64,000 bases of DNA from Dehalococcoidia bacterium (GTDB taxonomy: Bacteria; Chloroflexota; Dehalococcoidia; UBA6926). Under the pieces are notes generated by a model. The model saw only the letters and a list, made by a program, of their open reading frames with translations, had not been told where the DNA came from and did not search any database. The position numbers were made by a program, and so were the translations under genes. The stretch is taken from assembly GCA_965237465.1 (NCBI GenBank), contig OZ250138.1:155547-219546 (forward strand), written 5' to 3'. Positions within the stretch are counted from its first letter, which is position 1, and every line of letters begins with the position of its first letter. Shown piece by piece: positions 51,698 to 61,836 of the stretch.

Positions 51698-52681
51698 TTA
51701 GTCGTCGTCGGGCGGCTCATCATCCAGGACAATCATGTCGCCCGCGCCGCGCGCGATAAGGGAGTCGAGTAGACGCTGACCTATGTCGGTTGCCGGCGCT
51801 GAAGGATGGGCCGTCAGCGATTCCCTGAGAACAGTGCTTCCATCAACCGTCGCGGCAAGGGCCTCAATTGACAGCGTGTCGTCGTTAACGGATGCAAGGC
51901 ACGCAAGGGGCGTCCGGCAAAATCCGCCAATCGCCGCAAGAAATGCCCGCTCTGCGTCGGCGGCGACGCGCTCCATTGGATCCTCGGTCATGGCCGCAAT
52001 GGCGCAAGCGTCCGTGTCATCCTCGCGGCATTCGATGCTGATAAAGCCCTGGCCGACGGCTGGCAGCATCACGTCCGGTTGAAGATACTCGGCGATCGCG
52101 TCCTGCATCCCGAGCCGGATGAGGCCCACCGCGGCGAGCACGGCGGCGTCGGCCTCTATGGCGCGCCCTTCGCCTGTTACCTTGCGAATGCGCGTATCCA
52201 CGTTGCCGCGGAGCAGGACTATTTCCAGATCGGGCCTGTGTTCAAGAACCTGCGCGGCGCGGCGTAGGCTGCCGGTTCCCACGCGCGCGCCCGGAGGCAG
52301 GTTTGCGAGAGTGAGACCGTCCCGTGAGACCAGGGCGTCCCGTGGGTCGCCGCGCGGCATAACGGCCGCAAGCGTGTGTCCGGGCGGGAGTCGCGTGGGC
52401 AAGTCCTTGAGGCTGTGTACGGCGAAGTCAATCTCATCGTTGGCCAGGGCGATCTGGATTTCCTTCACAAATACGCCTTGGCCCAGATCCGGTATCGGCG
52501 TGTTGGGCCGACGGTCGGCCGTTGTTTCAATGCCTACGATTTCAAAGGCGATGTCCGGCCGCCTTGTAGCCGCCGCGTTGACGAATATTTCCGTCTGAAT
52601 GATGGCGAGGCGACTGGAACGCGTGCCGACGCGGAATGTGCGCCCGCCGCTCGACGCCGTCACGATGACCTCGCCGCCCAT
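51698..52681 (-). CDS. hemC: Hydroxymethylbilane synthase
   Basis: GTRSSRLA..Q, GVFVKEI, AVHSLKDLP, GTGSLRR, RGNVDTR, GGFC. Confidence 0.96.
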   Translation of the reverse strand: MGGEVIVTASSGGRTFRVGTRSSRLAIIQTEIFVNAAATRRPDIAFEIVGIETTADRRPNTPIPDLGQGVFVKEIQIALANDEIDFAVHSLKDLPTRLPPGHTLAAVMPRGDPRDALVSRDGLTLANLPPGARVGTGSLRRAAQVLEHRPDLEIVLLRGNVDTRIRKVTGEGRAIEADAAVLAAVGLIRLGMQDAIAEYLQPDVMLPAVGQGFISIECREDDTDACAIAAMTEDPMERVAADAERAFLAAIGGFCRTPLACLASVNDDTLSIEALAATVDGSTVLRESLTAHPSAPATDIGQRLLDSLIARGAGDMIVLDDEPPDDD

Positions 52682-54165
52682 TCGAGGGCTGCGTCGATTA
52701 TGCCGTTCGCTGTGTGCGCTGCTGCCTCGACCGCGATCGTCAGGCCCAGAGACTCCGCCGCTCGCGTTGTCGTGGGTCCTGCCGAGATGAATGCTGCGTC
52801 CCTAACCTGAACCGCCGCATTGTCGAGAGCCTCCACCAGGTTGCGCGCTGTTGACGGACTTGTCAGCACGATGGCGTCCACGCCGCGCGAGAGGGCATCA
52901 TTGGCGCGCCGCGCGAGGTCTGGGCCGGGCAACGTCTGGTATGCGATGACGGGCCATGGCGTCAACCCGTGGCCGCGCAGGGCATCCGGGAGCGCGTCAT
53001 CGGCTAGGTCGCCACGCGGCAGCAACACGGTATAGCCAGGTTGTGAGGCGGCCGCCAGGGTCTCGGCAAGGGCGCGTGAATTGAATTGGTCCGGCATGGC
53101 GTCATGGCGAAGGCCAACTCGGGCGAGCGCAGACGCTGTTGCGGGGCCAACGACGGCAAGACGAGCGCCCGCCAGCGCCCGCGAATCCAGGCCGGAGGCC
53201 AGCAGGCGCTTCATGAAATAATCCACGCCGTTGGCGCTGGTGAAGGAGAGCCATTGGAATTCACTTATGCGCTCCAGAGCGGCATCGACCTGCGACCAAT
53301 CGTCCGGCTCGCCAAAGCTGACAGCCGGGATGTGAACAGGTTCCGCGCCGGCGGCGTCCAGCAGCGCGATAAGCTCCGTTGCACGGGTCTCGCCCCTAAG
53401 CGCCATGATTCGCTTGCCGAAGAGCGGTCGCCGCTCGTACCAGGCGATGTCCTCTCTCAAGTGAACCACGTCGCCGCAGATCAAGATAGCAGGAGCGCGG
53501 ACGCCCGCTCGTTGCGCCCTGTCCGCGATTGCTCCGACCGTCGCGACCGTCGTGCGCTGGCGAGATGTCGTACCCCACTCGATGAGCGCGGCGGGCGCCT
53601 CTTCCGGCCAACCCTCTCGGCGCAGTGATTCAACGACGTCTGGCAGCGCACGCACGCCCATCAGGGCGATGACAGTCTCATTAGACGAGACTGTGGTTGA
53701 ATCGCCGTCAAGGCCGCGTTGCCCGGTGATGATGCGGAGCGAAGAAGCGTGACGGCGATCAGTGACGGGGATTCCTGCGTAGGCAGGGGCGGCCAGCGCG
53801 GACGTCACGCCCGGGACGACCTCAAACACGATTCCGGCCGCTGCCAGCGCGCTCGCCTCCTCGCCGCCCCGACCAAAGAGAAACGGGTCGCCGCCCTTCA
53901 GCCGAACAACGGTGTTGCCGGCGCCGGCGCGGTCAATCAACAGGCGGTTTATTTCATCCTGTGTCCTGCCGTCCTGACGCGCCGGATGCTTGCCCACGTC
54001 AGCAAGCTCAGCATCGTCGCGGGCCTCAGCGAGAAGCGAGGGGTTCACCAACCTGTCATAGACGACAACGTCGGCGCGTCGAAGAGCGCGCAGGCCCTTG
54101 ACGGTTATGAGCCCTGGGTCCCCCGGGCCGGCGCCCACAAGGTAGACCCTGCCGTCCTCATTCAC
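52660..54165 (-). CDS. cobA: Uroporphyrinogen-III C-methyltransferase / uroporphyrinogen-III synthase fusion (CobA-HemD)
   Basis: VYLVGAGPGDPGL, VRLKGGDPFLFGRGGEE, then HemD domain FTSANGV, VGPAT, LTSPST. Confidence 0.93.
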   Translation of the reverse strand: MNEDGRVYLVGAGPGDPGLITVKGLRALRRADVVVYDRLVNPSLLAEARDDAELADVGKHPARQDGRTQDEINRLLIDRAGAGNTVVRLKGGDPFLFGRGGEEASALAAAGIVFEVVPGVTSALAAPAYAGIPVTDRRHASSLRIITGQRGLDGDSTTVSSNETVIALMGVRALPDVVESLRREGWPEEAPAALIEWGTTSRQRTTVATVGAIADRAQRAGVRAPAILICGDVVHLREDIAWYERRPLFGKRIMALRGETRATELIALLDAAGAEPVHIPAVSFGEPDDWSQVDAALERISEFQWLSFTSANGVDYFMKRLLASGLDSRALAGARLAVVGPATASALARVGLRHDAMPDQFNSRALAETLAAASQPGYTVLLPRGDLADDALPDALRGHGLTPWPVIAYQTLPGPDLARRANDALSRGVDAIVLTSPSTARNLVEALDNAAVQVRDAAFISAGPTTTRAAESLGLTIAVEAAAHTANGIIDAALEWAARSS

Positions 54166-54799
54166 CGGCCTGATCCGTAAGGAGTCCAAGCAGTCGTGCG
54201 CGAAGTGCCGCAGAGTCTCCGTTGGTGATCAGCGAGCGCGTTTCAGCATCGTCCAGGGCGGCTTGCCAACGCCGGGGTGGCGTTCTTGTCCCAGCAAGTC
54301 GAAGCTCGGCCCGGATGTCCGCAAGGACGTCGATCAGCATCTCATATTCATTGGGCAACGCGCGATCAATCTCACGGCGCAGGAAACCGGCCATTGCGGG
54401 GCTGCGGCCGTTAGTTGAAATCGCTACCGTGGCATCGCCGCGCCGGACAAGGGCAGGGTAGATCCACGTGCAAAGGTCTGTGATGTCGACGACATTGAGG
54501 AGGACGCGCTCTCGCTCGGCCTCGGCGTGGATCTTTTCGCTCAGCGGGCGATCATGCGTCGTCGCTGAGATGGCGAGGAATGCCCCCGCGAGGTCGCCAT
54601 CACGGTAGGACCGAGTATGGAGTGCAATCTCGCGACGCTCGGCCATTTCGGTGAACCGAGGACGATCCTCCGGGCAAATGACAGTCACGTCTGCGCCCGC
54701 GTCCACGAGCGCCCCGGCCTTCATTTGGGCCTCATCATCCTCTCCGATGACGACGCAACGACGGCCGCGCAGATCAAGGTAAATAGGAAAATAGCCCAT
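54158..54799 (-). CDS. Precorrin-2 dehydrogenase / sirohydrochlorin ferrochelatase (CysG N-terminal / SirC-Met8-like)
   Basis: YFPIYLDLRGRRCVVIG, NVVD...C, AIST.GRSP. Confidence 0.9.
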   Translation of the reverse strand: MGYFPIYLDLRGRRCVVIGEDDEAQMKAGALVDAGADVTVICPEDRPRFTEMAERREIALHTRSYRDGDLAGAFLAISATTHDRPLSEKIHAEAERERVLLNVVDITDLCTWIYPALVRRGDATVAISTNGRSPAMAGFLRREIDRALPNEYEMLIDVLADIRAELRLAGTRTPPRRWQAALDDAETRSLITNGDSAALRARLLGLLTDQAGE

Positions 54800-54824
54800 G
54801 AGACCCCGCCTGCCTGCCGCAGCT

Positions 54825-55685
54825 TTATGATCCGGAGGCCGAAACTGATCCGGCCGGCGCCCGCTCTCCGGCGGCAAAGTGGTCCGCCAACGCGATGACC
54901 AGAGGCCCCATCTTTGGGTGCTCCGGCTCTACGTGAGGCGCGATGCCGTGCTCGCGCAAGGCCCGCGAGCATACCGGGCCGACGGATGCAACGACGATAT
55001 CCTCGGCCATCGCATCTTGTAGATCGCGAGCCATGGAGTTGTCATCTGCAATACGCATGAGGTTTCGGACTTGCGATTGCGTTGTGAACATGACGGCGTC
55101 AGCGTCCCGCGCGATGATGCGCCGGATCGCGTCCACCACTGGGGCGGTATCCTCCGGGAGTTCCCACACGTATAGCGACGCTTCCATGACCTCTGCGCCC
55201 ATCGCGACCAGCTCGCTTCTGAGATACGCATTGATCTCGCCGTAGTGCTGTAGTGCGACCCGCTTGCCGCGAAAGTCCCAGCCTGTGTCTTTGACGGCTG
55301 AGACAAGGTCCTCTGACATGAACGGCTCCGGCGCAATGAGGGCAATCGGGATTGAATTCTGGCGCATGACGGCGACGGGCTTGGGGCCCCGGCAGATGAT
55401 CTTTGTATCATGCAACGCTGCCAGGAACTCATCCTTGCGGCCAAGCTCATCCGCAGCATTTATGAGCGCCCGCGCCCCCACTCCCGTTAGGAAAACGGCG
55501 GCTTCCACGGTCCGCCTGCAAATTGCGTCGACCATGTCCTGGACGTCTTGACGCATGGGCAGCGGAACTTCCCGCAGGGCCGGCGCATTCACAGGGTCGC
55601 CGCCATGGCGCGAAACAAGCGCGGCCAACTCCGAGGGCATGCGGCCCTCCAGGACCACGACTCGTCGTCCTCCAAGGTCTGCCAC
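54825..55685 (-). CDS. Stand-alone uroporphyrinogen-III synthase (HemD-like)
   Basis: FLTGVG, RGPKP, Y.W..P, FT...QV, SVGPV, PKMG. Confidence 0.85.
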   Translation of the reverse strand: MADLGGRRVVVLEGRMPSELAALVSRHGGDPVNAPALREVPLPMRQDVQDMVDAICRRTVEAAVFLTGVGARALINAADELGRKDEFLAALHDTKIICRGPKPVAVMRQNSIPIALIAPEPFMSEDLVSAVKDTGWDFRGKRVALQHYGEINAYLRSELVAMGAEVMEASLYVWELPEDTAPVVDAIRRIIARDADAVMFTTQSQVRNLMRIADDNSMARDLQDAMAEDIVVASVGPVCSRALREHGIAPHVEPEHPKMGPLVIALADHFAAGERAPAGSVSASGS

Positions 55686-55734
55686 GCGCGCCTTGCCTCC
55701 GGGCTATGGTTGCGGATTGGTCCCGATCAGATGC

Positions 55735-57537
55735 CTACGTGGCGCACTCGCCCTCGCCGCGCTCCATCATGTACAGAACGGTCTTGTCATAGTCGATGTA
55801 CTGATCAAGGTTCGCCTTGTTCAAGGGACCAACTTCAGCGTACTCCTTGATGACCGCCTCAAAAGGCTCTCGGCCCAGCCGATGGGCAAAGTCCTTGAAG
55901 AGCTCGCCCTCCTGGCGCTCATCCTTGTAGAAACGCAGCACCTTGAAGACGGCCTCGGTTACGCGCTTCGCGGGAATCTTGCCCCGCGGCCTGACGCCGA
56001 AGCGGGTGTCGGCGTTCTCGTGACTGCCGCCCAGGAAGACTTCATAGGCGGGGATCTGTCCGCCCATGGGCCCCTTGATGAATGCGCCGTGGAAGCCAAT
56101 GTCCGAGACGTGATGGCGCCCGCACCCGTTGGGGCAGCCGCTCATCTTGATGTGCATCTGCTTGATAAGGGGATCCTCAAGGAGGCTGGCGTGGCCGTTC
56201 GGATTCCTGACCGCATCCGCGACAGCCTTGTTGAGTCCCATGGATGAGGTGATGCCCAATTTACAGCTATCCGTGCCGGGGCAGGAAGTGACGTCCGTGA
56301 TCTGGTTCATGCCGCCTTCGGCCATATCAAGCGCCTTCAAGTCCTGATATACGTCATACAGGTAGGCGTCGGGCACCCAGCGAAGCATCAGGTTCTGCTC
56401 CGGCGTGGTGCGGATGCGGTAGCTGGCGTGCTGGCGTGAAATCTCGGAGACGCCTCTGAACTGTTCCGGCGAGAGGTCGCCACGCGTCACGGTGATGCCG
56501 ACAAAGTTGTAGCCCTCCTGGGTTTGCGGGATCACGTTGGATTTCCGCCACGCCTGAAAGGCTGCATCGTCCTGGCCGCGAGTCTCCAGGCCCTCCGGGA
56601 GCGCCGGGATGTCCGCCGCCTCATCGTCATGGAAGAGCAGGTAATCGCGATCGGCGTAGTCTTGCGCCCAGTCCTGCTGCAGCTCCTCCTCCACCTGCTG
56701 GCGGAAAGAGTCGATGCCCTCTGTGTGAATGAGGACCTTAATACGGGCCTTCATCTTATTGCGGCGCAGCCATGCGGTGCGATTGAACACGCGGAGCATC
56801 GCCTCCGAGACGCGAAGAAAGTCATCAACGGGGACGAACTCATAGATCGTCTCCGCGATGAGAGGCTGAATCGATGTGCCGCCGCCAACGACGATCTTGA
56901 ATCCCTTGACCTGTTCGCCATTCTCTTCACGGACGCGCGCGACGAATCCAAGGTCATGCATCGTCACGGTTGCGCAATCGTGGTCGCCGCAGGAGAAGGC
57001 GGGCTTCACCTTGCGCGGCATATGGAACGTAAAATCACGCCGGACAAAGTTGCGGACAAAGGCGCCCATGTAAGGCAGAATGTCGAAGGCCTGTTGGGGG
57101 TCGATTCCGGCCATCGGGCAGGCGGTAACGTTGCGGACGGAATTGCCGCATGCTTCCTTGGTGCTCAGGCCGACGTCCTGCAAGAGGTGCATTGCTTTAC
57201 CGGCATCCTCAAGCAGGAGGTGGTGCAACTGGATATTCTCGCGCGTGGTGATGTGGCCCTTGTTTAGCGGGGCGTAGCGCTCGGCAATCTCGCCTATCGC
57301 GTCCCACTGGTCCGCGTGGACAAGCCCGCCCGGGATTTTGATCCGAAACATCTGGGCATCTGACTGTCGCTGTCCGTAAACGCCCAGGCGGAGCCGGAAA
57401 GACATGAATTCGTCTTCGGGAATCTCCCCGTCGCGAAACTCCTTGACCCTTCCTTCATAGTCGGCGATTTCCTCGTCCAGGTACTGGATTATCGAGGGAC
57501 GGGCGGAACGACTACCCGTCTGTGTTGACGTATTCAT
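55735..57537 (-). CDS. sir: Ferredoxin-dependent sulfite (nitrite/sulfite) reductase
   Basis: FRLRLGVYGQRQ, TTRENIQ, CPGTDSC and SGCPNGC siroheme/[4Fe-4S] ligands; lies in sulfate operon. Confidence 0.9.
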   Translation of the reverse strand: MNTSTQTGSRSARPSIIQYLDEEIADYEGRVKEFRDGEIPEDEFMSFRLRLGVYGQRQSDAQMFRIKIPGGLVHADQWDAIGEIAERYAPLNKGHITTRENIQLHHLLLEDAGKAMHLLQDVGLSTKEACGNSVRNVTACPMAGIDPQQAFDILPYMGAFVRNFVRRDFTFHMPRKVKPAFSCGDHDCATVTMHDLGFVARVREENGEQVKGFKIVVGGGTSIQPLIAETIYEFVPVDDFLRVSEAMLRVFNRTAWLRRNKMKARIKVLIHTEGIDSFRQQVEEELQQDWAQDYADRDYLLFHDDEAADIPALPEGLETRGQDDAAFQAWRKSNVIPQTQEGYNFVGITVTRGDLSPEQFRGVSEISRQHASYRIRTTPEQNLMLRWVPDAYLYDVYQDLKALDMAEGGMNQITDVTSCPGTDSCKLGITSSMGLNKAVADAVRNPNGHASLLEDPLIKQMHIKMSGCPNGCGRHHVSDIGFHGAFIKGPMGGQIPAYEVFLGGSHENADTRFGVRPRGKIPAKRVTEAVFKVLRFYKDERQEGELFKDFAHRLGREPFEAVIKEYAEVGPLNKANLDQYIDYDKTVLYMMERGEGECAT

Positions 57538-57634
57538 TGGATCCCCCCTATTGGGCTCTCACACATAGAGTACGCTCGCCAACTATAGAAACTCAAATCG
57601 TTGACGGTGCTATGCCGGAGCCGCCCGACAGCTC

Positions 57635-58816
57635 CTAGCCGCGCGTCGCCTCAATAAGAATCTTCGCAACCTCCGGCCGCGTGAACTCCATCGGCGGAAC
57701 CTGACCGTTGGCAAGCATGTCGCGCACCTGTGTGCCGCTCAGGAGCAAGCGCTCCTCCGGGCCGTGCGGGCAGGTTTTCATGGATGCCATGCCCTCGCAG
57801 CGCTTGCAGAAGAAGGAGTGATCGAAGAAGAGCGGGGTGATGCCCAAATCGGCGGGCGGTATGCTGCGGAGCAGGTCCTGCGCCTCATATGTGCCGTAAT
57901 AGGAACCGACGCCGGCATGATCACGACCGACAATGAAGTGCGTGCAGCCGTAGTTCTTGCGAACGAGGGCGTGGAACACAGCCTCGCGCGGCCCCGCATA
58001 GCGCATGGCGGCGGGTAGAACGGACAGATGCACGCGATCCTCCGGGTAATAGCCGTCAAGCAGCGCCTCATAGCACTTCATTCGGACGTTTGCGGGGATG
58101 TCGTCAGGCTTGGTCTCACCGACCAGAGGGTGGAGCAGGAGGCCGTCCACGATCTCCAGCGCGGCCTTTTGGATGTACTCGTGCGCGCGGTGGACGGGGT
58201 TGCGGGTCTGGAAGCCGACGATTGTCCGCCAACGCCGCTCCGCGAACGCGGCGCGGGTCTGCGCCGGGTCTTCGCGGTAGGGACGCAACTCCGACTCCAG
58301 ATTCTCGCGCTCGATGACGGTGACCGCGCCTCCAATGAGCATTTCGTCCTGGCGGTAGACGGAGGCGACTCCGGGGTGAGCCTCGTCTGTTGTGCCGAAG
58401 ACGTTCTGGGCCTCTTCCTGCTTGTCGTAGGGGTAGACCTCGTCCACGGTCAGGATGCCCAGGTGCCTGCCGGTATGATCCTGGAGCACGACGTCGTCGC
58501 CCAGTTTCAGCCCGCGCGCCGTATCCGCGGGGGCCGACAGGGTGATGGGCAGGCTCCAGAGTGTGCTGTCCGCGAGTCGCATCTCATGCACGGTGCGTTC
58601 GTAGTCGGCCTGGTTCATGAAACCGGTCAGGGGGCTCATTGCGCCGACGGCGATGAGATCCAGATCCGCGGTTTCGCGCAGGCCCAGCGTGATGTGGGTC
58701 AGTTCCGGCGCGCGCTCGCGAATCTCCGTGGCCTGGTCCGGGGACGCGAATCGGTCGACCAACGTTCCGCCGTGCGGGGCGATGGCGTATGTGGGTTCTG
58801 CGGTAAGTGTTGCCAT
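57635..58816 (-). CDS. sat: Sulfate adenylyltransferase
   Basis: PHGGTLV, FQTRNPVHRAHE, MRYAGPREA, GRDHAG, SGT.VR. Confidence 0.97.
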   Translation of the reverse strand: MATLTAEPTYAIAPHGGTLVDRFASPDQATEIRERAPELTHITLGLRETADLDLIAVGAMSPLTGFMNQADYERTVHEMRLADSTLWSLPITLSAPADTARGLKLGDDVVLQDHTGRHLGILTVDEVYPYDKQEEAQNVFGTTDEAHPGVASVYRQDEMLIGGAVTVIERENLESELRPYREDPAQTRAAFAERRWRTIVGFQTRNPVHRAHEYIQKAALEIVDGLLLHPLVGETKPDDIPANVRMKCYEALLDGYYPEDRVHLSVLPAAMRYAGPREAVFHALVRKNYGCTHFIVGRDHAGVGSYYGTYEAQDLLRSIPPADLGITPLFFDHSFFCKRCEGMASMKTCPHGPEERLLLSGTQVRDMLANGQVPPMEFTRPEVAKILIEATRG

Positions 58817-58819
58817 GGT

Positions 58820-59395
58820 CTAGGTCATCGCCCCCACCAACTCGCTGGCCGTGCCCTTGGGCGCGAATCCTCGCTCCTCCAGAGCGGCCAGAACCTTGCC
58901 GAGGCTCTCCTCAATGGACTCCTGCTCCGTGTTGACAAGCACCTCAGGGTTCAGGGGCTCCTCGTAGGGATCTGAGACGCCGGTGAAGTTCGGGATCTCG
59001 CCCTTGATGGCCTTCTCGTAGAGTCCCTTGACGTCGCGTCGCACGAGCTCATCAAGGGAGGCCTCGACGTAAACCTCAACAAAGTTGTCGCCGATGTCGT
59101 TGCGCACTTCGTCTCGCACCTCGCGGTAGGGGGAAATGGCGGATACGATGCTGACGACGCCGTTGCGCGTCAGCAGGTTGCTCACGAATCCGATGCGTCG
59201 AATGTTGGTGTCGCGATCTTCTTTGCTGAAACCGAGGCCTTTGCTGAGGTTCGTGCGAACCACATCGCCGTCCAGCAACTCAGACTTTACGCTCTGATCC
59301 CGCAGCACTGCGAGCAGGCGCTCTGCGATTGTGCTCTTGCCGGCGCCTGAAAGGCCGGTGAACCAGACTGTTGCTCCCTTGTGAGGTGTCTCCAA
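58820..59395 (-). CDS. cysC: Adenylyl-sulfate kinase
   Basis: [44 protein letters not shown]. Confidence 0.97.
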
Positions 59396-59467: not shown

Positions 59468-60226
59468 TCAGGTCGTCGTGGAAACGACCTTGCCGGTAAC
59501 CGGGTCAATGTGGATGCCGCACTCAACCTTGTCCTCAAAATCCGACCAACGCCCGGCGCGGGCGTCCTCACCGGGGAGGACGGCGCGGGTGCAGTTGGTG
59601 CAGCCGATGCTGGGGTAACCCTGATCATGCAGGTCGTTGTAGGGAATCTTGTTGTCGCGGATATAGTCCCAGACATCGTCCTCGGTCCAGTTTGCGAGAG
59701 GGGTGACCTTGATGAGGTTGAACTTCGTGTCCCACGCGACGATGGCGATGTCCTTGCGCGTGTCGCCCTGATCACGACGGAGGCCGGCGATCCACGCGCG
59801 CTGCCCGACTAAAGCCTGCTCATTCGGCTTGACCTTGCGGATTTCGCAACAGAGATCCGGATCAGACTTCCAGAGCTCTGCGCCGTGGGTTTCCGCCTGC
59901 TGGTCAATGGACATGTCCGTCTTGAACGCGATCGGCTGGAAGCCGTATCGACGCGCAACATTGTCCTTGAGGGCGTGGGTCTGGGGGAAGAGGAAATCCG
60001 TATCAACGTAGAAGACAGGAACCTCGGTGTTGATCTTCATGGCCATGTCCAGGAGAACCATCCCGGAGACGCCGCCAAAGCTGCACGCCAATGTGATGTC
60101 CGGAAAGAAGTTCTCGATGGCCCAGCGCACGATCTCCTGCGGGTGAGCCTTCTCTAGGCTTGAGGTGACCTCCGCCAGTCGCTCCTCCGTCCACTCGCTC
60201 TGTAGCGCCTCTATTGTCGTTGCCAT
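59468..60226 (-). CDS. cysH: APS/PAPS reductase (Fe-S type)
   Basis: SFG, DT..LF, CC..RK, YPSIGC..CT, RAGRW, ECGIH. Confidence 0.95.
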   Translation of the reverse strand: MATTIEALQSEWTEERLAEVTSSLEKAHPQEIVRWAIENFFPDITLACSFGGVSGMVLLDMAMKINTEVPVFYVDTDFLFPQTHALKDNVARRYGFQPIAFKTDMSIDQQAETHGAELWKSDPDLCCEIRKVKPNEQALVGQRAWIAGLRRDQGDTRKDIAIVAWDTKFNLIKVTPLANWTEDDVWDYIRDNKIPYNDLHDQGYPSIGCTNCTRAVLPGEDARAGRWSDFEDKVECGIHIDPVTGKVVSTTT

Positions 60227-60354
60227 TGGTTCCTGCTTCCCTTGCTTCCCCGTCCATACTTTTCCGACTGATTGACTGCGAATTCGTCTCTCTTGTGTTG
60301 CCGCCCGGTCTGTGTCTCGTAGCTTGCCTGCGTGCCTGAACCGTTTCGGGCGAC

Positions 60355-60387
60355 AAAAAAACCGCCTTGACTTTCGTCGGGGCGGTT
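60355..60387 (-). terminator. Leader (attenuator) terminator upstream of cysH
   Basis: Minus strand AACCGCC-CC-GAC-GAAA-GTC-AA-GGCGG-TTTTTTT; lies between the promoter and cysH. Confidence 0.8.
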
Positions 60388-60444
60388 GGAGGTCTGATCC
60401 CTGATCAGGCTATTGCGCGCTTGTGTCCCTCGTAGGCCGTTTGG

Positions 60445-60561
60445 CTACAGACGCCCGGCCTTCCGCCCCGTGTGTTGCATCGAACAACAAGAGCAAGTCA
60501 CCGCGGCGCGGCGCGCCTGGGCAATGGCGGAAGGGTTATGGGTGTAAGACTGCGTATTCAT
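60445..60561 (-). CDS. Cys-rich leader peptide (38 aa) of the sulfate-assimilation operon
   Basis: MNTQSYTHNPSAIAQARRAAVTCSCCSMQHTGRKAGRL*; Cys codons 23, 25, 26; overlaps alternative RNA helices. Confidence 0.75.
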   Translation of the reverse strand: MNTQSYTHNPSAIAQARRAAVTCSCCSMQHTGRKAGRL

Positions 60562-60586
60562 GATCGTGCACACTGGCTGCCACCAA

Positions 60587-60615
60587 AATATAGGTGCACC
60601 ACGAAGGCTTGTCAA
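60587..60615 (-). promoter_or_regulatory. Sigma-70 promoter of leader-cysH operon
   Basis: TTGACA (60615-60610)-17 nt-TATATT (60592-60587). Confidence 0.75.
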
Positions 60616-60637
60616 TAGCTTGTGACTGCATTCACGA

Positions 60638-61009
60638 TCAGGACTCTTCCAGCTCGCTGCTGCCCATCCGCATCAGTTCCGCTTCCTCCAGAAGGCGGCG
60701 AAACAGCGGCCATATCTCCTCAATACGCGGATCCATGCTTGAGATGGAGATGGCGCGATAGAGGACGCCCGTGCTGACGCCGATGGTCGTTGACTCGCCC
60801 ACTGGGGGAAGCTCCGCGCCAAGGGCTCTTACAACAAGCTCTGTGGTGGTGCGGCCCACGCCCGAGTCATAGCAACGGGTGAGCGCGCGACCCTTATGGA
60901 GCAGCGTCAGGCCTCCCTTGCCACGCCGCAGCGTCACTTCAACACGGCGGGCCGGCCGCGAAAGCAGCTGGTCGGCGTACACCCATGCCTTGGCGCGTGA
61001 TGTGGACAT
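60638..61009 (-). CDS. Hypothetical protein
   Basis: 123-aa ORF with protein-like composition, co-oriented with its neighbour; no recognised motif. Confidence 0.6.
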   Translation of the reverse strand: MSTSRAKAWVYADQLLSRPARRVEVTLRRGKGGLTLLHKGRALTRCYDSGVGRTTTELVVRALGAELPPVGESTTIGVSTGVLYRAISISSMDPRIEEIWPLFRRLLEEAELMRMGSSELEES

Positions 61010-61036
61010 ATCTGCCGATTCCCTGGCGACGAGACG

Positions 61037-61396
61037 CTATGTAGCCAACTCGTACGGTGTTGACTTGTCCAACAGGAGGCAGGGCTCGCCTGTCTGTGAA
61101 GGGTCATCCAGGTCCCACGGGCTGTCGGAATCAAGGGGACGCGTACGAATTCCGTCGTCGCCGCCGTAGATGAGCAGTGCGTGGCCCTCGCCGGAGTCCT
61201 CAACGATGACGGCGTAAGCGGGGCAGGGACCCTCGGCGCTCCAGCCGGTCACCTCGACCATCGATAGCTCGCCACGCAGGCCCGGCGCCTCGATGCGCCA
61301 AACGGGCTGCGGCTCGTCCACGAGGCTGAATACGCGATGCAGAGAGTAATCGCAGTTCGTTCCCGCTTCAACCTCTACGTCAATGTATTTCGCCAT
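61037..61396 (-). CDS. Hypothetical protein
   Basis: 119-aa acidic ORF with AAGGGGG RBS and TACAAT upstream; no recognised motif. Confidence 0.65.
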   Translation of the reverse strand: MAKYIDVEVEAGTNCDYSLHRVFSLVDEPQPVWRIEAPGLRGELSMVEVTGWSAEGPCPAYAVIVEDSGEGHALLIYGGDDGIRTRPLDSDSPWDLDDPSQTGEPCLLLDKSTPYELAT

Positions 61397-61475
61397 TGCA
61401 GCCCCCTTGACATGGGCACATTGTACGCGCGCTCGGGCCGCTTTAAGGGTGCGCCGTTGCGGTGATCGAATCGAA

Positions 61476-61836
61476 TGGTGGAGGCGGGGGGGAGTTGAAC
61501 CCCCCGTCCAAAGGCGGCCCCGAATGCGGCGCTACAGGCTTAGTCGGTCTATAAGATTTCGCCTCTCGCGGCCCCGGCCGACAGGGTCTGCGTGCGGCTA
61601 GCCGGCATGGTCTTTCGTCGCTCGCCACCGGCTGACTTGCGACGGCGCCCCGCTAAGTTGTCGCTCTACTCCGTCCGCAGGGATAACGGTGCAGAACGTC
61701 GCTTCCTAGTTACTAGGCTGCGAGTGCGAGTTGCTTGTTGTTGCCAGCTACTCTTTGTGCCGCGGGATTAACGAGGTCACGGCGCCTCGGCCTGCTCACA
61801 CACCGGTGCGGACCCTTGTCGAATCCGCGCGCCCCC
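61476..61836 (-). ncRNA. ssrA: tmRNA
   Basis: 5' GGGGGCGCGCGGATTCGAC, 3' GGTTCAACTCCCCCCGCCTCCACCA; tag frame GNNKQLALAA** at 61745-61713; adjacent to smpB. Confidence 0.96.

Follow-up and report, generated by a model that had tools for sequence, protein, structure and literature searches.

The leader upstream of cysH in the window (the whole 64,000-nucleotide stretch of DNA analysed here) most likely acts as a transcription attenuator of the ribosome-mediated, or leader-peptide, kind and senses how much Cys-tRNA(Cys) is available. A short ORF with clustered Cys codons is followed there by an intrinsic terminator, and a strand inside the ORF is complementary to the 5' arm of that terminator. 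The window alone is suggestive only of an attenuator; the comparative data described below carry the case.

The cysH leader and its presumed operon

The first-pass annotation of the window had described a promoter, a Cys-containing ORF, three complementary segments and a terminator ahead of cysH, sat, sir and siroheme genes. All of the sequence features that it listed were present at the coordinates it gave, every feature of the predicted attenuator lying on the minus strand, and the downstream genes were confirmed by Pfam. The features are as follows.

60622..60635, minus strand: palindrome GTGA-N6-TCAC, right after the upstream-ORF stop codon and 6 nt before the -35 box
60587..60615, minus strand: sigma-70-type promoter; TTGACA 60615-60610, 17-nt spacer, TATATT 60592-60587
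60445..60561, minus strand: leader ORF of 38 codons + TAG, MNTQSYTHNPSAIAQARRAAVTCSCCSMQHTGRKAGRL; ATG 60561, TAG 60447-60445
60526..60534, minus strand: segment 1 of the first-pass annotation, CCTTCCGCC / CCUUCCGCC; perfect complement of GGCGGAAGG 60467-60459
60502..60523, minus strand: hairpin H_B, GGCGC-GCC-GCGCC plus an outer UGC/GCG stem, immediately 5' to the Cys codons
60484..60495, minus strand: putative regulatory codons TGC-TCT-TGT-TGT (Cys-Ser-Cys-Cys), read from the sequence
60463..60470, minus strand: segment 2, CGGGGCGG, predicted antiterminator 5' strand, inside the ORF (codons T-G-R)
60434..60461, minus strand: hairpin H_C, AGGCCG...CGGCCU, with the leader stop codon in its loop
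60394..60408, minus strand: hairpin H_D, CUGAUC-AGG-GAUCAG, between segments 2 and 3
60385-60378, minus strand: segment 3, CCGCCCCG, in the terminator 5' arm; perfect complement of CGGGGCGG
60355..60387, minus strand: intrinsic terminator; 5' arm with segment 3, GAAA loop, 3' arm GGCGG, U7 60361-60355
59468..60226, minus strand: cysH (PAPS/APS reductase), first structural gene; Pfam PF01507 (PAPS_reduct), E = 6e-52
51698..59395, minus strand: rest of the presumed operon, cysC to hemC (Pfam)
59395-58820, minus strand: cysC (Pfam APS kinase)
58816-57635, minus strand: sat (Pfam ATP-sulfurylase)
57537-55735, minus strand: sir (Pfam NIR_SIR)
55685-54825, minus strand: HEM4-only ORF (Pfam HEM4)
54877-54158, minus strand: sirC-like gene (Pfam NAD_binding_7 + Sirohm_synth_M)
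54189-52660, minus strand: cobA-hemD fusion (Pfam TP_methylase-HEM4)
52681-51698, minus strand: hemC (Pfam)

From the shared strand and the short gaps, we infer that the genes from cysH to hemC are probably co-transcribed. The promoter matched the consensus at 11 of 12 positions and was the sole promoter-like site in 59800-61200 (shuffle mean, 0.3). An equivalent promoter, TTGACA-17-TATAGT, was aligned in the 19 relatives belonging to the genus. The leader ATG is located 25 nt after the end of the -10 box, and the predicted 5' UTR is ~20 nt long.

Distribution of the leader among genomes

When genomes were searched with covariance model R1, the arrangement of promoter, short ORF, terminator and cysH was found in 21/21 other genomes of the window's genus, and the leader was found in one of the three genomes of the sister genus (G022). 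The leader was also present in an unrelated order titled Latescibacterota or Gemmatimonadaceae (referred to below as the second lineage), where 4 of the 76 genomes carried it. It was always upstream of cysH; in G022, it was upstream of a TauE permease gene followed by cysH. The leader of the second lineage precedes only cysH-cysC-sat, and control of the siroheme genes is predicted to be specific to the window's genus. The matching genus records are titled Dehalococcoidia, and the hosts are uncultured MAGs with genomes of ~2 Mb.

The CysH of the window was 72.5% identical to that of the second lineage and 76% identical to that of the sister genus, compared with ~40% for other members of the same family. 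CysH of the second lineage is thus closer than that of same-family members, which is the ground for suggesting a transfer. The leader may be a self-contained, portable cysteine sensor that moved horizontally with cysH-cysC-sat between the Dehalococcoidia family and the Latescibacterota/Gemmatimonadaceae-titled lineage, with its sensitivity tuned by a Cys run of 2-7. We propose this transfer and tuning tentatively, as possible rather than probable.

When model R1 was run on a class-level sample of Chloroflexota (151 genomes), 11 genomes matched at E <= 0.01, and eight of these belonged to the window's genus. The three weak matches (E 0.003-0.008) were rejected as apparent coding regions without a Cys ORF, as was G190 (E 0.0096), found among the relatives of G041. 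Model R2 matched 2/151 genomes of a phylum sample, both from the window's genus. A first pattern scan was too loose and returned 120 stretches, mostly chance matches in GC-rich genomes. The second returned 24, all of which were inspected; its matches in Streptomyces (four) and Thermaceae (one) had no Cys ORF and were rejected. Among Rfam families, window positions 59500-61500 matched only a tmRNA end and two chance-level entries at E <= 10, and leaders L012, L141, L155 and L178 had no match at E <= 1. Thus, no Rfam family, T-box and S-box included, matched any clade's leader tested.

Within the window's genome, the covariance model had a single match. This genome encodes a canonical CysRS (503.9 bits), and no Cys leader was found there before cysS or a cysK-like gene. 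A scan of the genome for C-x(0-1)-C ORFs with a perfect-stem terminator after them returned 11 ORF rows; no row was a credible leader, and the one cluster inspected was located inside a 380-codon ORF. The scan demanded a perfect stem and missed the real cysH leader, the stem of which is imperfect.

The leader ORF and its Cys codons

Every leader examined contained an ATG-started ORF of 34-39 codons in the same frame; this same-frame ORF was found in 20/20 loci compared, in the 4 second-lineage genomes and in G022. The ATG was invariant in all 25 aligned leaders and was also present in L169 and G022. The lengths of the gap blocks in the alignment were multiples of three in 6/6 cases in the ORF versus 4/20 downstream. 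Long stretches of the ORF were invariant at the nucleotide level, synonymous positions included, and the ORF of the window is not preceded by a clear Shine-Dalgarno sequence, as read by eye.

Conservation of the Cys codons, which the first-pass annotation had put forward as a check of its model, was borne out: two to seven Cys codons occupied one aligned place in every leader. The runs were CSC, CSCY, CSCC or CSCCC in the genus, CLCCC in G022, and CCCCCC or CCCCCCC in the second lineage. Cys was the only residue run kept across the clades, the N-terminal halves of the peptides being otherwise unrelated, and P-x-P/Q-G-R-E-A was a conserved C-terminal peptide motif. A protein database query with a 56-codon ORF containing the leader peptide returned three proteins, all of them versions of the same leader. 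Comparison of the leaders therefore supports the view that the leader ORF is probably translated, with the Cys codons as its conserved and expandable feature.

Terminator, antiterminator and neighboring hairpins

The terminator of the window (AACCGCC-CC-GAC-GAAA-GUC-AA-GGCGGUU, then seven U) is imperfect, with a folding energy of -14.9 kcal/mol when folded alone. From the end of its U-tract to the cysH ATG (60226) the distance is 129 nt, and the terminators of relatives, read by eye, are also well upstream of cysH. A GC-rich hairpin with a U-tract was conserved in 25/25 aligned leaders and in G022, and the terminator helix was 92.8% paired across 25 leaders.

The duplex of segments 2 and 3 was calculated at -19.5 kcal/mol. 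In the window, segment 2 follows the last Cys codon at a distance of 13 nt; in 26/26 leaders, the invariant core GGGGCGG starts 11-14 nt after that codon and is complementary to the terminator 5' arm. The comparison supports a placement of this conserved strand just outside a ribosome that would be stalled on the Cys codons. The antiterminator helix was 92.4% paired across 25 leaders. When the partner columns were slid, pairing fell to 34-50%. The 8-mer CGGGGCGG occurred eight times on both strands of the window (shuffle mean, 8.1); by our own arithmetic, the chance of one right-strand copy within ~120 nt of the terminator is ~0.008. Further, the stability of the whole-leader fold was no better than that of shuffled sequences (z = 0.19).

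The first-pass annotation had called for conservation and covariation of its three helices. The terminator and the antiterminator were conserved; segment 1 was not, and covariation was weak. Only 3/33 pairs changed on both sides, a number reached by 21/500 shuffles, and most pairs never varied; in the 7-bp antiterminator core, four pairs were invariant and there was no compensatory change. This weakness reflects the near invariance of the helices, the case for which is made by conservation and complementarity.

Three further hairpins surround these elements. The two helices of H_B were 95.0 and 92.8% paired, and the second lineage has an analogue of different sequence (GCGGG-GGA-CCCGC, read by eye); we consider H_B a candidate RNA polymerase pause hairpin. 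H_C (helix 4) was 90.8% paired, with 2/7 pairs changed on both sides. At the place of H_D, relatives have a small hairpin with stems UCUG/CAGA or CCUG/CAGG, as read by eye.

Of the 1:2, 2:3 and 3:4 pairings in the scheme of the first-pass annotation, comparison supported 2:3 and 3:4 but not the one with its segment 1. The helix of segment 1 with GGCGGAAGG was present in the centroid fold of the window leader, but segment 1 is specific to the window's genome, its place being taken by CATCAGT or CTTCAGT in relatives. With 31 nt between it and the first Cys codon downstream, segment 1 would be left uncovered by a stalled ribosome. Of the 26 leaders folded, 25 had a local hairpin, (U)GCCC-N6-GGGC(G), formed from the codons right after the Cys codons; the sister-genus leader has it as well, and the window leader is without it. 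This hairpin was 96.0% paired across 25 leaders and is likely the anti-antiterminator in relatives.

Predicted switching by a stalled ribosome

We folded 26 leaders with ribosome masks placed on the last Cys codon or on the stop codon, using transcripts cut after segment 3 or of full length. A ribosome mask on the last Cys codon of the cut transcript gave the antiterminator as the MFE structure in 26/26 leaders. This result agrees, at the level of computation, with the earlier claim that stalling at the Cys codons frees segment 2. With the mask on the stop codon, the antiterminator was the MFE structure in 4/26 leaders, that of the window among them. The stop codon of the window leader is 15 nt beyond segment 2, and a ribosome located there may leave segment 2 unmasked. 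The antiterminator was still the MFE structure in 21/26 cut transcripts with no ribosome; these folds do not support the arm of the classical scheme in which no translation leads to termination. At full length, the terminator was the MFE structure in 24/26 leaders with no ribosome, 23/26 with a stalled ribosome and 25/26 with a ribosome at the stop codon. The terminator is thus favored at full length even with a stalled ribosome, so any switching has to be kinetic, like that of classical attenuators. We infer that ribosome stalling and a kinetic competition between the two folds would set the outcome.

In the proposed mechanism, transcription would begin at the TTGACA-17-TATATT promoter, and a ribosome would translate the 38-codon leader as RNA polymerase proceeds. 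When charged tRNA(Cys) is scarce, the ribosome would stall on Cys-Ser-Cys-Cys with its footprint ending just before CGGGGCGG, and segment 2 would pair with CCGCCCCG of segment 3 once the latter emerges. The 2:3 pairing would close a three-way junction around H_C and H_D and withhold the terminator 5' arm, allowing read-through into cysH-cysC-sat-sir and the siroheme genes. When Cys-tRNA is plentiful, the ribosome would reach the stop codon inside H_C and cover or flank segment 2; in relatives, the GCCC-N6-GGGC hairpin would re-form behind the ribosome at the stop codon. Segment 3 would then pair with segment 4, and transcription would terminate at the U-tract.

Alternative explanations

Cys-codon stalling might regulate the operon mainly outside the intrinsic terminator, for instance by Rho-dependent polarity, by an effect on mRNA stability, or by coupling of translation of the kind seen in the polycysteine short ORFs of mycobacteria. 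The sole experimentally dissected Cys leader unmasks a ribosome-binding site, according to the account in 10.1101/834739, and the imperfect terminator of the window, together with the preference for the terminator in 23/26 full-length leaders despite a stalled ribosome, would fit such a route. We nevertheless consider it improbable, given that a GC-rich hairpin with a U-tract is kept in all 25 aligned leaders and G022, that the terminator 5' arm is the exact complement of segment 2, and that in the window cysH starts 129 nt past the U-tract with no predicted pairing to its ribosome-binding site. The same terminator could instead be governed by a translation-independent RNA switch, either a riboswitch or a protein-binding leader, with the ORF being incidental. 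This reading, which we judge quite improbable, would account for the nucleotide-level invariance of long ORF stretches, for the conserved hairpins H_B, H_C and H_D, and for the window ORF having no obvious Shine-Dalgarno sequence. The frame-preserving indels (6/6 in the ORF against 4/20 downstream), the ATG kept in every leader examined and the lack of an Rfam match argue against it. Further, the Cys run grows from 2 to 7, and the second lineage and G022 have an unrelated sequence in place of the 5' half, changes that no ligand pocket could accommodate.

A small Cys-rich peptide with a function of its own, such as a metal/redox or a precursor peptide, with the terminator merely ending its own short transcript, seems highly improbable. 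Conservation of P-x-P/Q-G-R-E-A at the peptide level and the three database proteins, which are called versions of the ORF, are what such a peptide would predict. The conserved C-terminal codons, however, coincide with segment 2 and H_C, and the RNA constraints of these elements explain their conservation, whereas the Cys count and the whole N-terminal half vary freely. The leader is also always directly before cysH or a sulfur permease gene and occurs a single time in the window's genome, and Pfam annotation of the neighbors revealed no modifying-enzyme genes adjoining it. Transcription attenuation through ribosome stalling at the Cys codons remains the reading that we prefer.

Relation to known attenuators

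Control of sulfate assimilation is usually attributed to proteins (CysB, CymR, CysR) or to S-box/T-box RNAs. Among trp/his-type attenuators, that of E. coli trpL serves as the classical reference (PMC4007540). As in these attenuators, the cysH leader has an ORF with codons for the end product, a terminator before the first structural gene, an antiterminator strand that would be freed by a stalled ribosome and, in most members, a local hairpin as the putative anti-antiterminator. In contrast to them, cysteine would be sensed here, and the operon serves sulfate activation and reduction, with siroheme genes added in the genus. Instead of forming a simple hairpin, the predicted antiterminator closes a three-way junction spanning ~90 nt; the leader stop codon is located within a hairpin, neither sequence nor Rfam membership relates the leader to these attenuators, and the hosts are Dehalococcoidia-titled and Latescibacterota-titled MAG lineages. 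In the models, the Cys codons appear buried in a clade-variable helix with the conserved, pause-like H_B upstream, an arrangement that would go beyond the textbook 1:2/2:3/3:4 scheme.

The first-pass annotation overstated the novelty of a Cys attenuator: Cys leaders of cys operons are known in Actinobacteria (PMC1262725; 10.1101/834739), and Cys-codon leaders of the terminator type have been predicted before cysS in Rhodobacterales (PMC8632094). In mycobacterial polycysteine leaderless sORFs, as described by Canestrari et al. (10.1101/834739), stalling at Cys codons under cysteine limitation turns on downstream genes. The cysH leader resembles these in that a short ORF ahead of cysteine/sulfur genes has its Cys codons in runs, and differs from that description in its 5' UTR of ~20 nt (from the promoter prediction), its conserved terminator with U-tract and its unrelated sequence. 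It is predicted not to be leaderless, nor does it appear to sequester a ribosome-binding site, that of cysH being >100 nt past the window terminator and unpaired in the prediction. A comparative genomics study of 2005 (PMC1262725) describes short ORFs with Cys runs, located near the stop codon, before cysteine-pathway operons; its account gives no conserved terminator hairpins for them and suggests Rho, whereas terminator and antiterminator are both conserved here. Among cysS leaders, the uORFC-8-2 motif is reported from Rhodobacterales (Brewer et al. 2021, PMC8632094) and a 10-codon leader with two Cys codons from Deinococcus deserti (PMC4007540). Both, as these sources describe them, share with the cysH leader an ORF with two or more Cys codons, an intrinsic terminator after it and a proposed role in sensing Cys-tRNA charging. 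They differ in regulating cysteinyl-tRNA synthetase, in belonging to other phyla and in their architecture, where the first of two stems contains the Cys codons.

Our literature search yielded no description of a Cys attenuator of cysH, although supplementary lists of leaders and motifs, which were outside its scope, could hold related cases, and none of any attenuator in Dehalococcoidia or Latescibacterota. The cysH leader is most likely a classical mechanism in a new pathway and in little-studied bacteria. If the proposed mechanism is true, the leader might rank as the first amino-acid attenuator of terminator type to be described for sulfate assimilation and for these phyla, and would place cysH-cysC-sat, and in the genus also sulfite reductase and siroheme synthesis, under a protein-free control read by the ribosome. 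The ratio of leader to operon coverage would then be a marker of cysteine limitation in metatranscriptomes, and the leader could become a new Rfam-type family; the understanding of attenuation itself would be unchanged.

Features upstream of the promoter

The 123-aa and 119-aa ORFs upstream of the leader had no Pfam or NCBIfam family match. The GTGA-N6-TCAC palindrome between them and the promoter was kept in the genus alignment and in the sister genus, and may be an operator or a hairpin as an accessory feature. As a motif of a wider regulon it was rejected: the 31 sites in the genome equal the chance level, and the sole one located beside a TTGAC box is that of the cysH promoter.

Leader features in the window

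All of the sequence features that the first-pass annotation had claimed upstream of cysH were found, on the minus strand, as follows (source: sequence, or Pfam for the genes).

60615-60610 and 60592-60587, minus: promoter, TTGACA, 17 nt, TATATT
60561 (ATG) to 60447-60445 (TAG), minus: leader ORF of 38 codons
60534-60526, minus: segment 1, CCTTCCGCC, complement of GGCGGAAGG at 60467-60459
60495-60484, minus: Cys-Ser-Cys-Cys codons
60470-60463, minus: segment 2, CGGGGCGG, complement of CCGCCCCG at 60385-60378
60385-60378 and 60361-60355, minus: terminator 129 nt 5' of cysH, with 5' arm CCGCCCCG (segment 3), a GAAA loop and seven U
Downstream genes, minus (Pfam): cysH, cysC, sat, sir, HEM4 ORF, sirC-like gene, methylase-HEM4 fusion, hemC

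There was no further promoter-like site between 59800 and 61200. The window by itself makes an only suggestive case for an attenuator. The 8-mer occurs at chance frequency (8 copies found, 8.1 expected) and the whole-leader fold is no more stable than shuffled sequences (z = 0.19). The chance of one 8-mer copy on the right strand within 120 nt is roughly 0.008.

Conservation in the genus and sister genus

By DNA search, 19 of the 21 other genus genomes have the leader, always just upstream of cysH, and none of 19 genomes outside the genus does. A short ORF occupies the same frame in each of the 20 loci, the promoter reads TTGACA-17-TATAGT, and both the segment CGGGGCGG(G)AGGCC and a terminator of the form CCGCCCC(G)-loop-(C)GGGGCGG-UUUU are common to all. 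The consensus peptide was M-N-x-x-x-x-T-H-S-P-S-V-x-A-L-A-R-R-A-A-V-T-C-S-C-Y-M-P-V-P-G-R-E-A-x-R, in which the Y position is C in some members. Public records identical to genus loci carry either 'MAG: Dehalococcoidia bacterium' or 'Chloroflexota bacterium' as their title. The public protein P0003 is a called version of the leader with SDELAHTQPIRIFALARR... in place of MNSRTHSPSIFALARR... at its N-terminal part, a difference that points to a variant in which the start is shifted or an indel is present.

R1, a covariance model of the leader core, matched 21 of 21 other genus genomes, one of three in the sister genus and none of three in a third genus. R1 gave nothing credible in a class sample of 143 non-genus genomes, and R2, another covariance model of the leader, matched 0 of 149 non-genus genomes in a phylum sample. 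The most divergent member, in the sister-genus genome G022, encodes the leader peptide MKTITDGSSASDGSHRRSFAVICLCCCMPDQGRRFGTI; GGGGCGG follows its last Cys codon by 11 nt, and its terminator is CCGCCCCGAC-ACUC-GUCAGGGCGG-U6. In this genome a TauE/SafE permease gene (locus L178, 1095-1880, minus; Pfam E = 4e-49) lies between leader and cysH; with this gene order, control by the attenuator would extend to a putative sulfite or sulfate transporter.

A second lineage

A pattern scan gave a first match in an unrelated order, on a 5.5-Mb chromosome titled 'Candidatus Latescibacterota bacterium'. R1 detected three more leaders among 40 relatives of that genome, and R2 recovered the identical four among 76 genomes of the order; three of the four genomes are titled Latescibacterota and one Gemmatimonadaceae. 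One leader peptide is MNAQFHIPDCSAIALAPRAAVTCSCCCTPIQGREAGRAT and the other three are MIKTRAHGRSASARGTRMAGT-CCCCCC(C)-EPTPGREAVP, in which an uninterrupted run of six or seven Cys codons takes the aligned position and the N-terminal half is unrelated. The Cys codons are followed by CCGGGGCGGGAGGCC, a stop-codon hairpin, the terminator CCGCCCCG...CGGGGCGG-U7 and then cysH-cysC-sat. Sulfite-reductase and siroheme genes were absent after these three genes in the second lineage; therefore, the conserved regulated core is cysH-cysC-sat. In the second-lineage genome G041 a single 568-aa ORF (locus L171, 7269-8975, minus) joins cysC and sat, the genes for APS kinase and ATP sulfurylase; another genome of the lineage, G177, and the window have them as separate genes.

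CysH of the window was 72.5% identical to that of the second lineage, 76% to that of the sister genus and 40-41% to those of two other same-family genomes. From these sequences we infer that the operon and its leader moved by horizontal transfer, in either direction.

Structural evidence and the proposed switch

In an alignment of 25 sequences, 93.7% of cells paired under the terminator-state model and 93.2% under the antiterminator-state model, against 34-50% in a control with sliding partner columns. Both sides changed in just 3 of 33 pairs, and compensatory change was absent from the antiterminator's seven core pairs in this alignment. Judged from the alignment, the helices are conserved and complementary, and covariation is no proof of them. 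A clearer compensatory change was found in the hairpin H_C (60434..60461, minus, with the stop codon in its loop), as GGCCG/CGGCC versus GGCUGU/ACAGCC, and G022 has yet another stem (partly by eye).

We folded 26 leaders with a ribosome-sized stretch kept single-stranded. When the RNA was cut just after segment 3, the minimum free energy (MFE) structure contained the 2:3 helix (segment 2 with segment 3) in 21/26 leaders with no ribosome, in 26/26 with the last Cys codon masked and in 4/26 with the stop codon masked. In the four exceptions, the window included, the stop codon lies 15-18 nt past segment 2, not 12. At full length, the terminator was in the MFE structure of 24/26, 23/26 and 25/26 leaders, respectively. 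Since the full-length fold favours the terminator, read-through must rely on earlier formation of the antiterminator, a kinetic logic shared with classical attenuators. The two stabilities in the window are comparable (2:3 duplex, -19.5 kcal/mol; terminator hairpin, -14.9). With a stalled ribosome, the 2:3 helix would close a three-way junction around H_C and the hairpin H_D (60394..60408).

Segment 1 had been proposed as the 1:2 arm. Two observations speak against this assignment: the segment is not conserved, and 31 nt separate it from the first Cys codon, which would leave it beyond the footprint of a stalled ribosome. The likely anti-antiterminator in the model is a local hairpin between the (U)GCCC codons right after the Cys codons and GGGC(G) of segment 2, a pairing that 25 of the 26 leaders have, as does G022. 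A ribosome on the Cys codons would cover this hairpin, which would re-form behind a terminating ribosome. The window lacks it, with CAA CAC at that place, and in this genome segment 1 (60534-60526) may be a substitute.

In the genus the two-tier hairpin H_B (60502..60523, minus) stops 5-6 nt short of the first Cys codon, and the second lineage has a hairpin of other sequence at that place; H_B may be a pause hairpin that couples ribosome to polymerase. Depending on the clade, the stretch of Cys codons has a conserved complement on its upstream side, ACAYAGC, or on its downstream side, ACAC(G)AGC. In the window, approximately 60484-60500 would pair with 60535-60545 and 60415-60425; in G022 the partner changes along with the Cys-codon content.

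The attenuator interpretation stands for the Cys leader peptide, the terminator and the antiterminator, and one helix, that of segment 1, is wrong or unproven. The leader is most likely a Cys-sensing leader-peptide attenuator with terminator and antiterminator.

Predicted translation of the leader ORF

The ATG was invariant in 25/25 aligned leaders. All six distinct gap blocks between start codon and segment 2 were multiples of three, against 4 of 20 downstream. Cys was the sole residue type kept in all three clades, in two to seven copies, and the codon between Cys codons was Ser, Leu or Cys. P-G-R-E-A, the conserved stretch near the C terminus, is encoded where segment 2 and the hairpin after it lie, and constraints on the RNA therefore explain its conservation. 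Counting against translation, the window ORF has no clear Shine-Dalgarno sequence by eye; in the second lineage GAGGAAG lies five to six nt 5' of the ATG (by eye).

Relation to known attenuators

The leader has the computationally testable defining features of trp/his-type attenuators except a demonstrated 1:2 arm, and, as known here from sequence, is predicted to work like them. It had no Rfam family match in any clade. The novelty claimed earlier was overstated, since Cys leaders are in print. Candidate Cys leader peptides without terminators precede cys operons in Actinobacteria (PMC1262725). In Mycobacterium smegmatis, leaderless polycysteine short ORFs were dissected by experiment and act on translation (10.1101/834739). 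Two-Cys leaders of the terminator type are predicted in front of cysS in Rhodobacterales (uORFC-8-2; PMC8632094) and Deinococcus deserti (PMC4007540). A full-text literature search of main texts found no Cys attenuator of cysH or sat and no attenuator in Dehalococcoidia or Latescibacterota. It is well supported that this is a known regulator type, here for a pathway and lineages for which we found no printed example.

Genomic surroundings

The leader occurs once in the window's genome, where neither the canonical CysRS gene nor a CysK-like gene has such a Cys leader. A search of public sequencing runs turned up no RNA run that contains the locus. Pfam agreed with the identities previously assigned to the downstream genes. 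The presumed operon carries two HEM4 (uroporphyrinogen-III synthase) domains: a stand-alone 286-aa ORF (54825-55685, minus), which overlaps the sirC-like gene, and one fused to a tetrapyrrole methylase (52660-54189, minus).

The upstream ORF's stop codon is followed at once by a GTGA-N6-TCAC palindrome (60622-60635, minus), 6 nt upstream of the -35 box; the genus and sister genus keep it, and the second lineage does not. It may be a hairpin, or else an operator through which a protein adds a second layer of control. The upstream ORFs at 60638-61009 (123 aa) and 61037-61396 (119 aa), both minus, had no Pfam or NCBIfam match; the 123-aa ORF also adjoins the leader in the genus and sister genus (L178, 2203-2574). 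Some 900 nt upstream of the leader, and on its strand, is a tmRNA gene (61476-61500 and beyond); at least one other member of the genus has it in the corresponding position (L012, 216-577).
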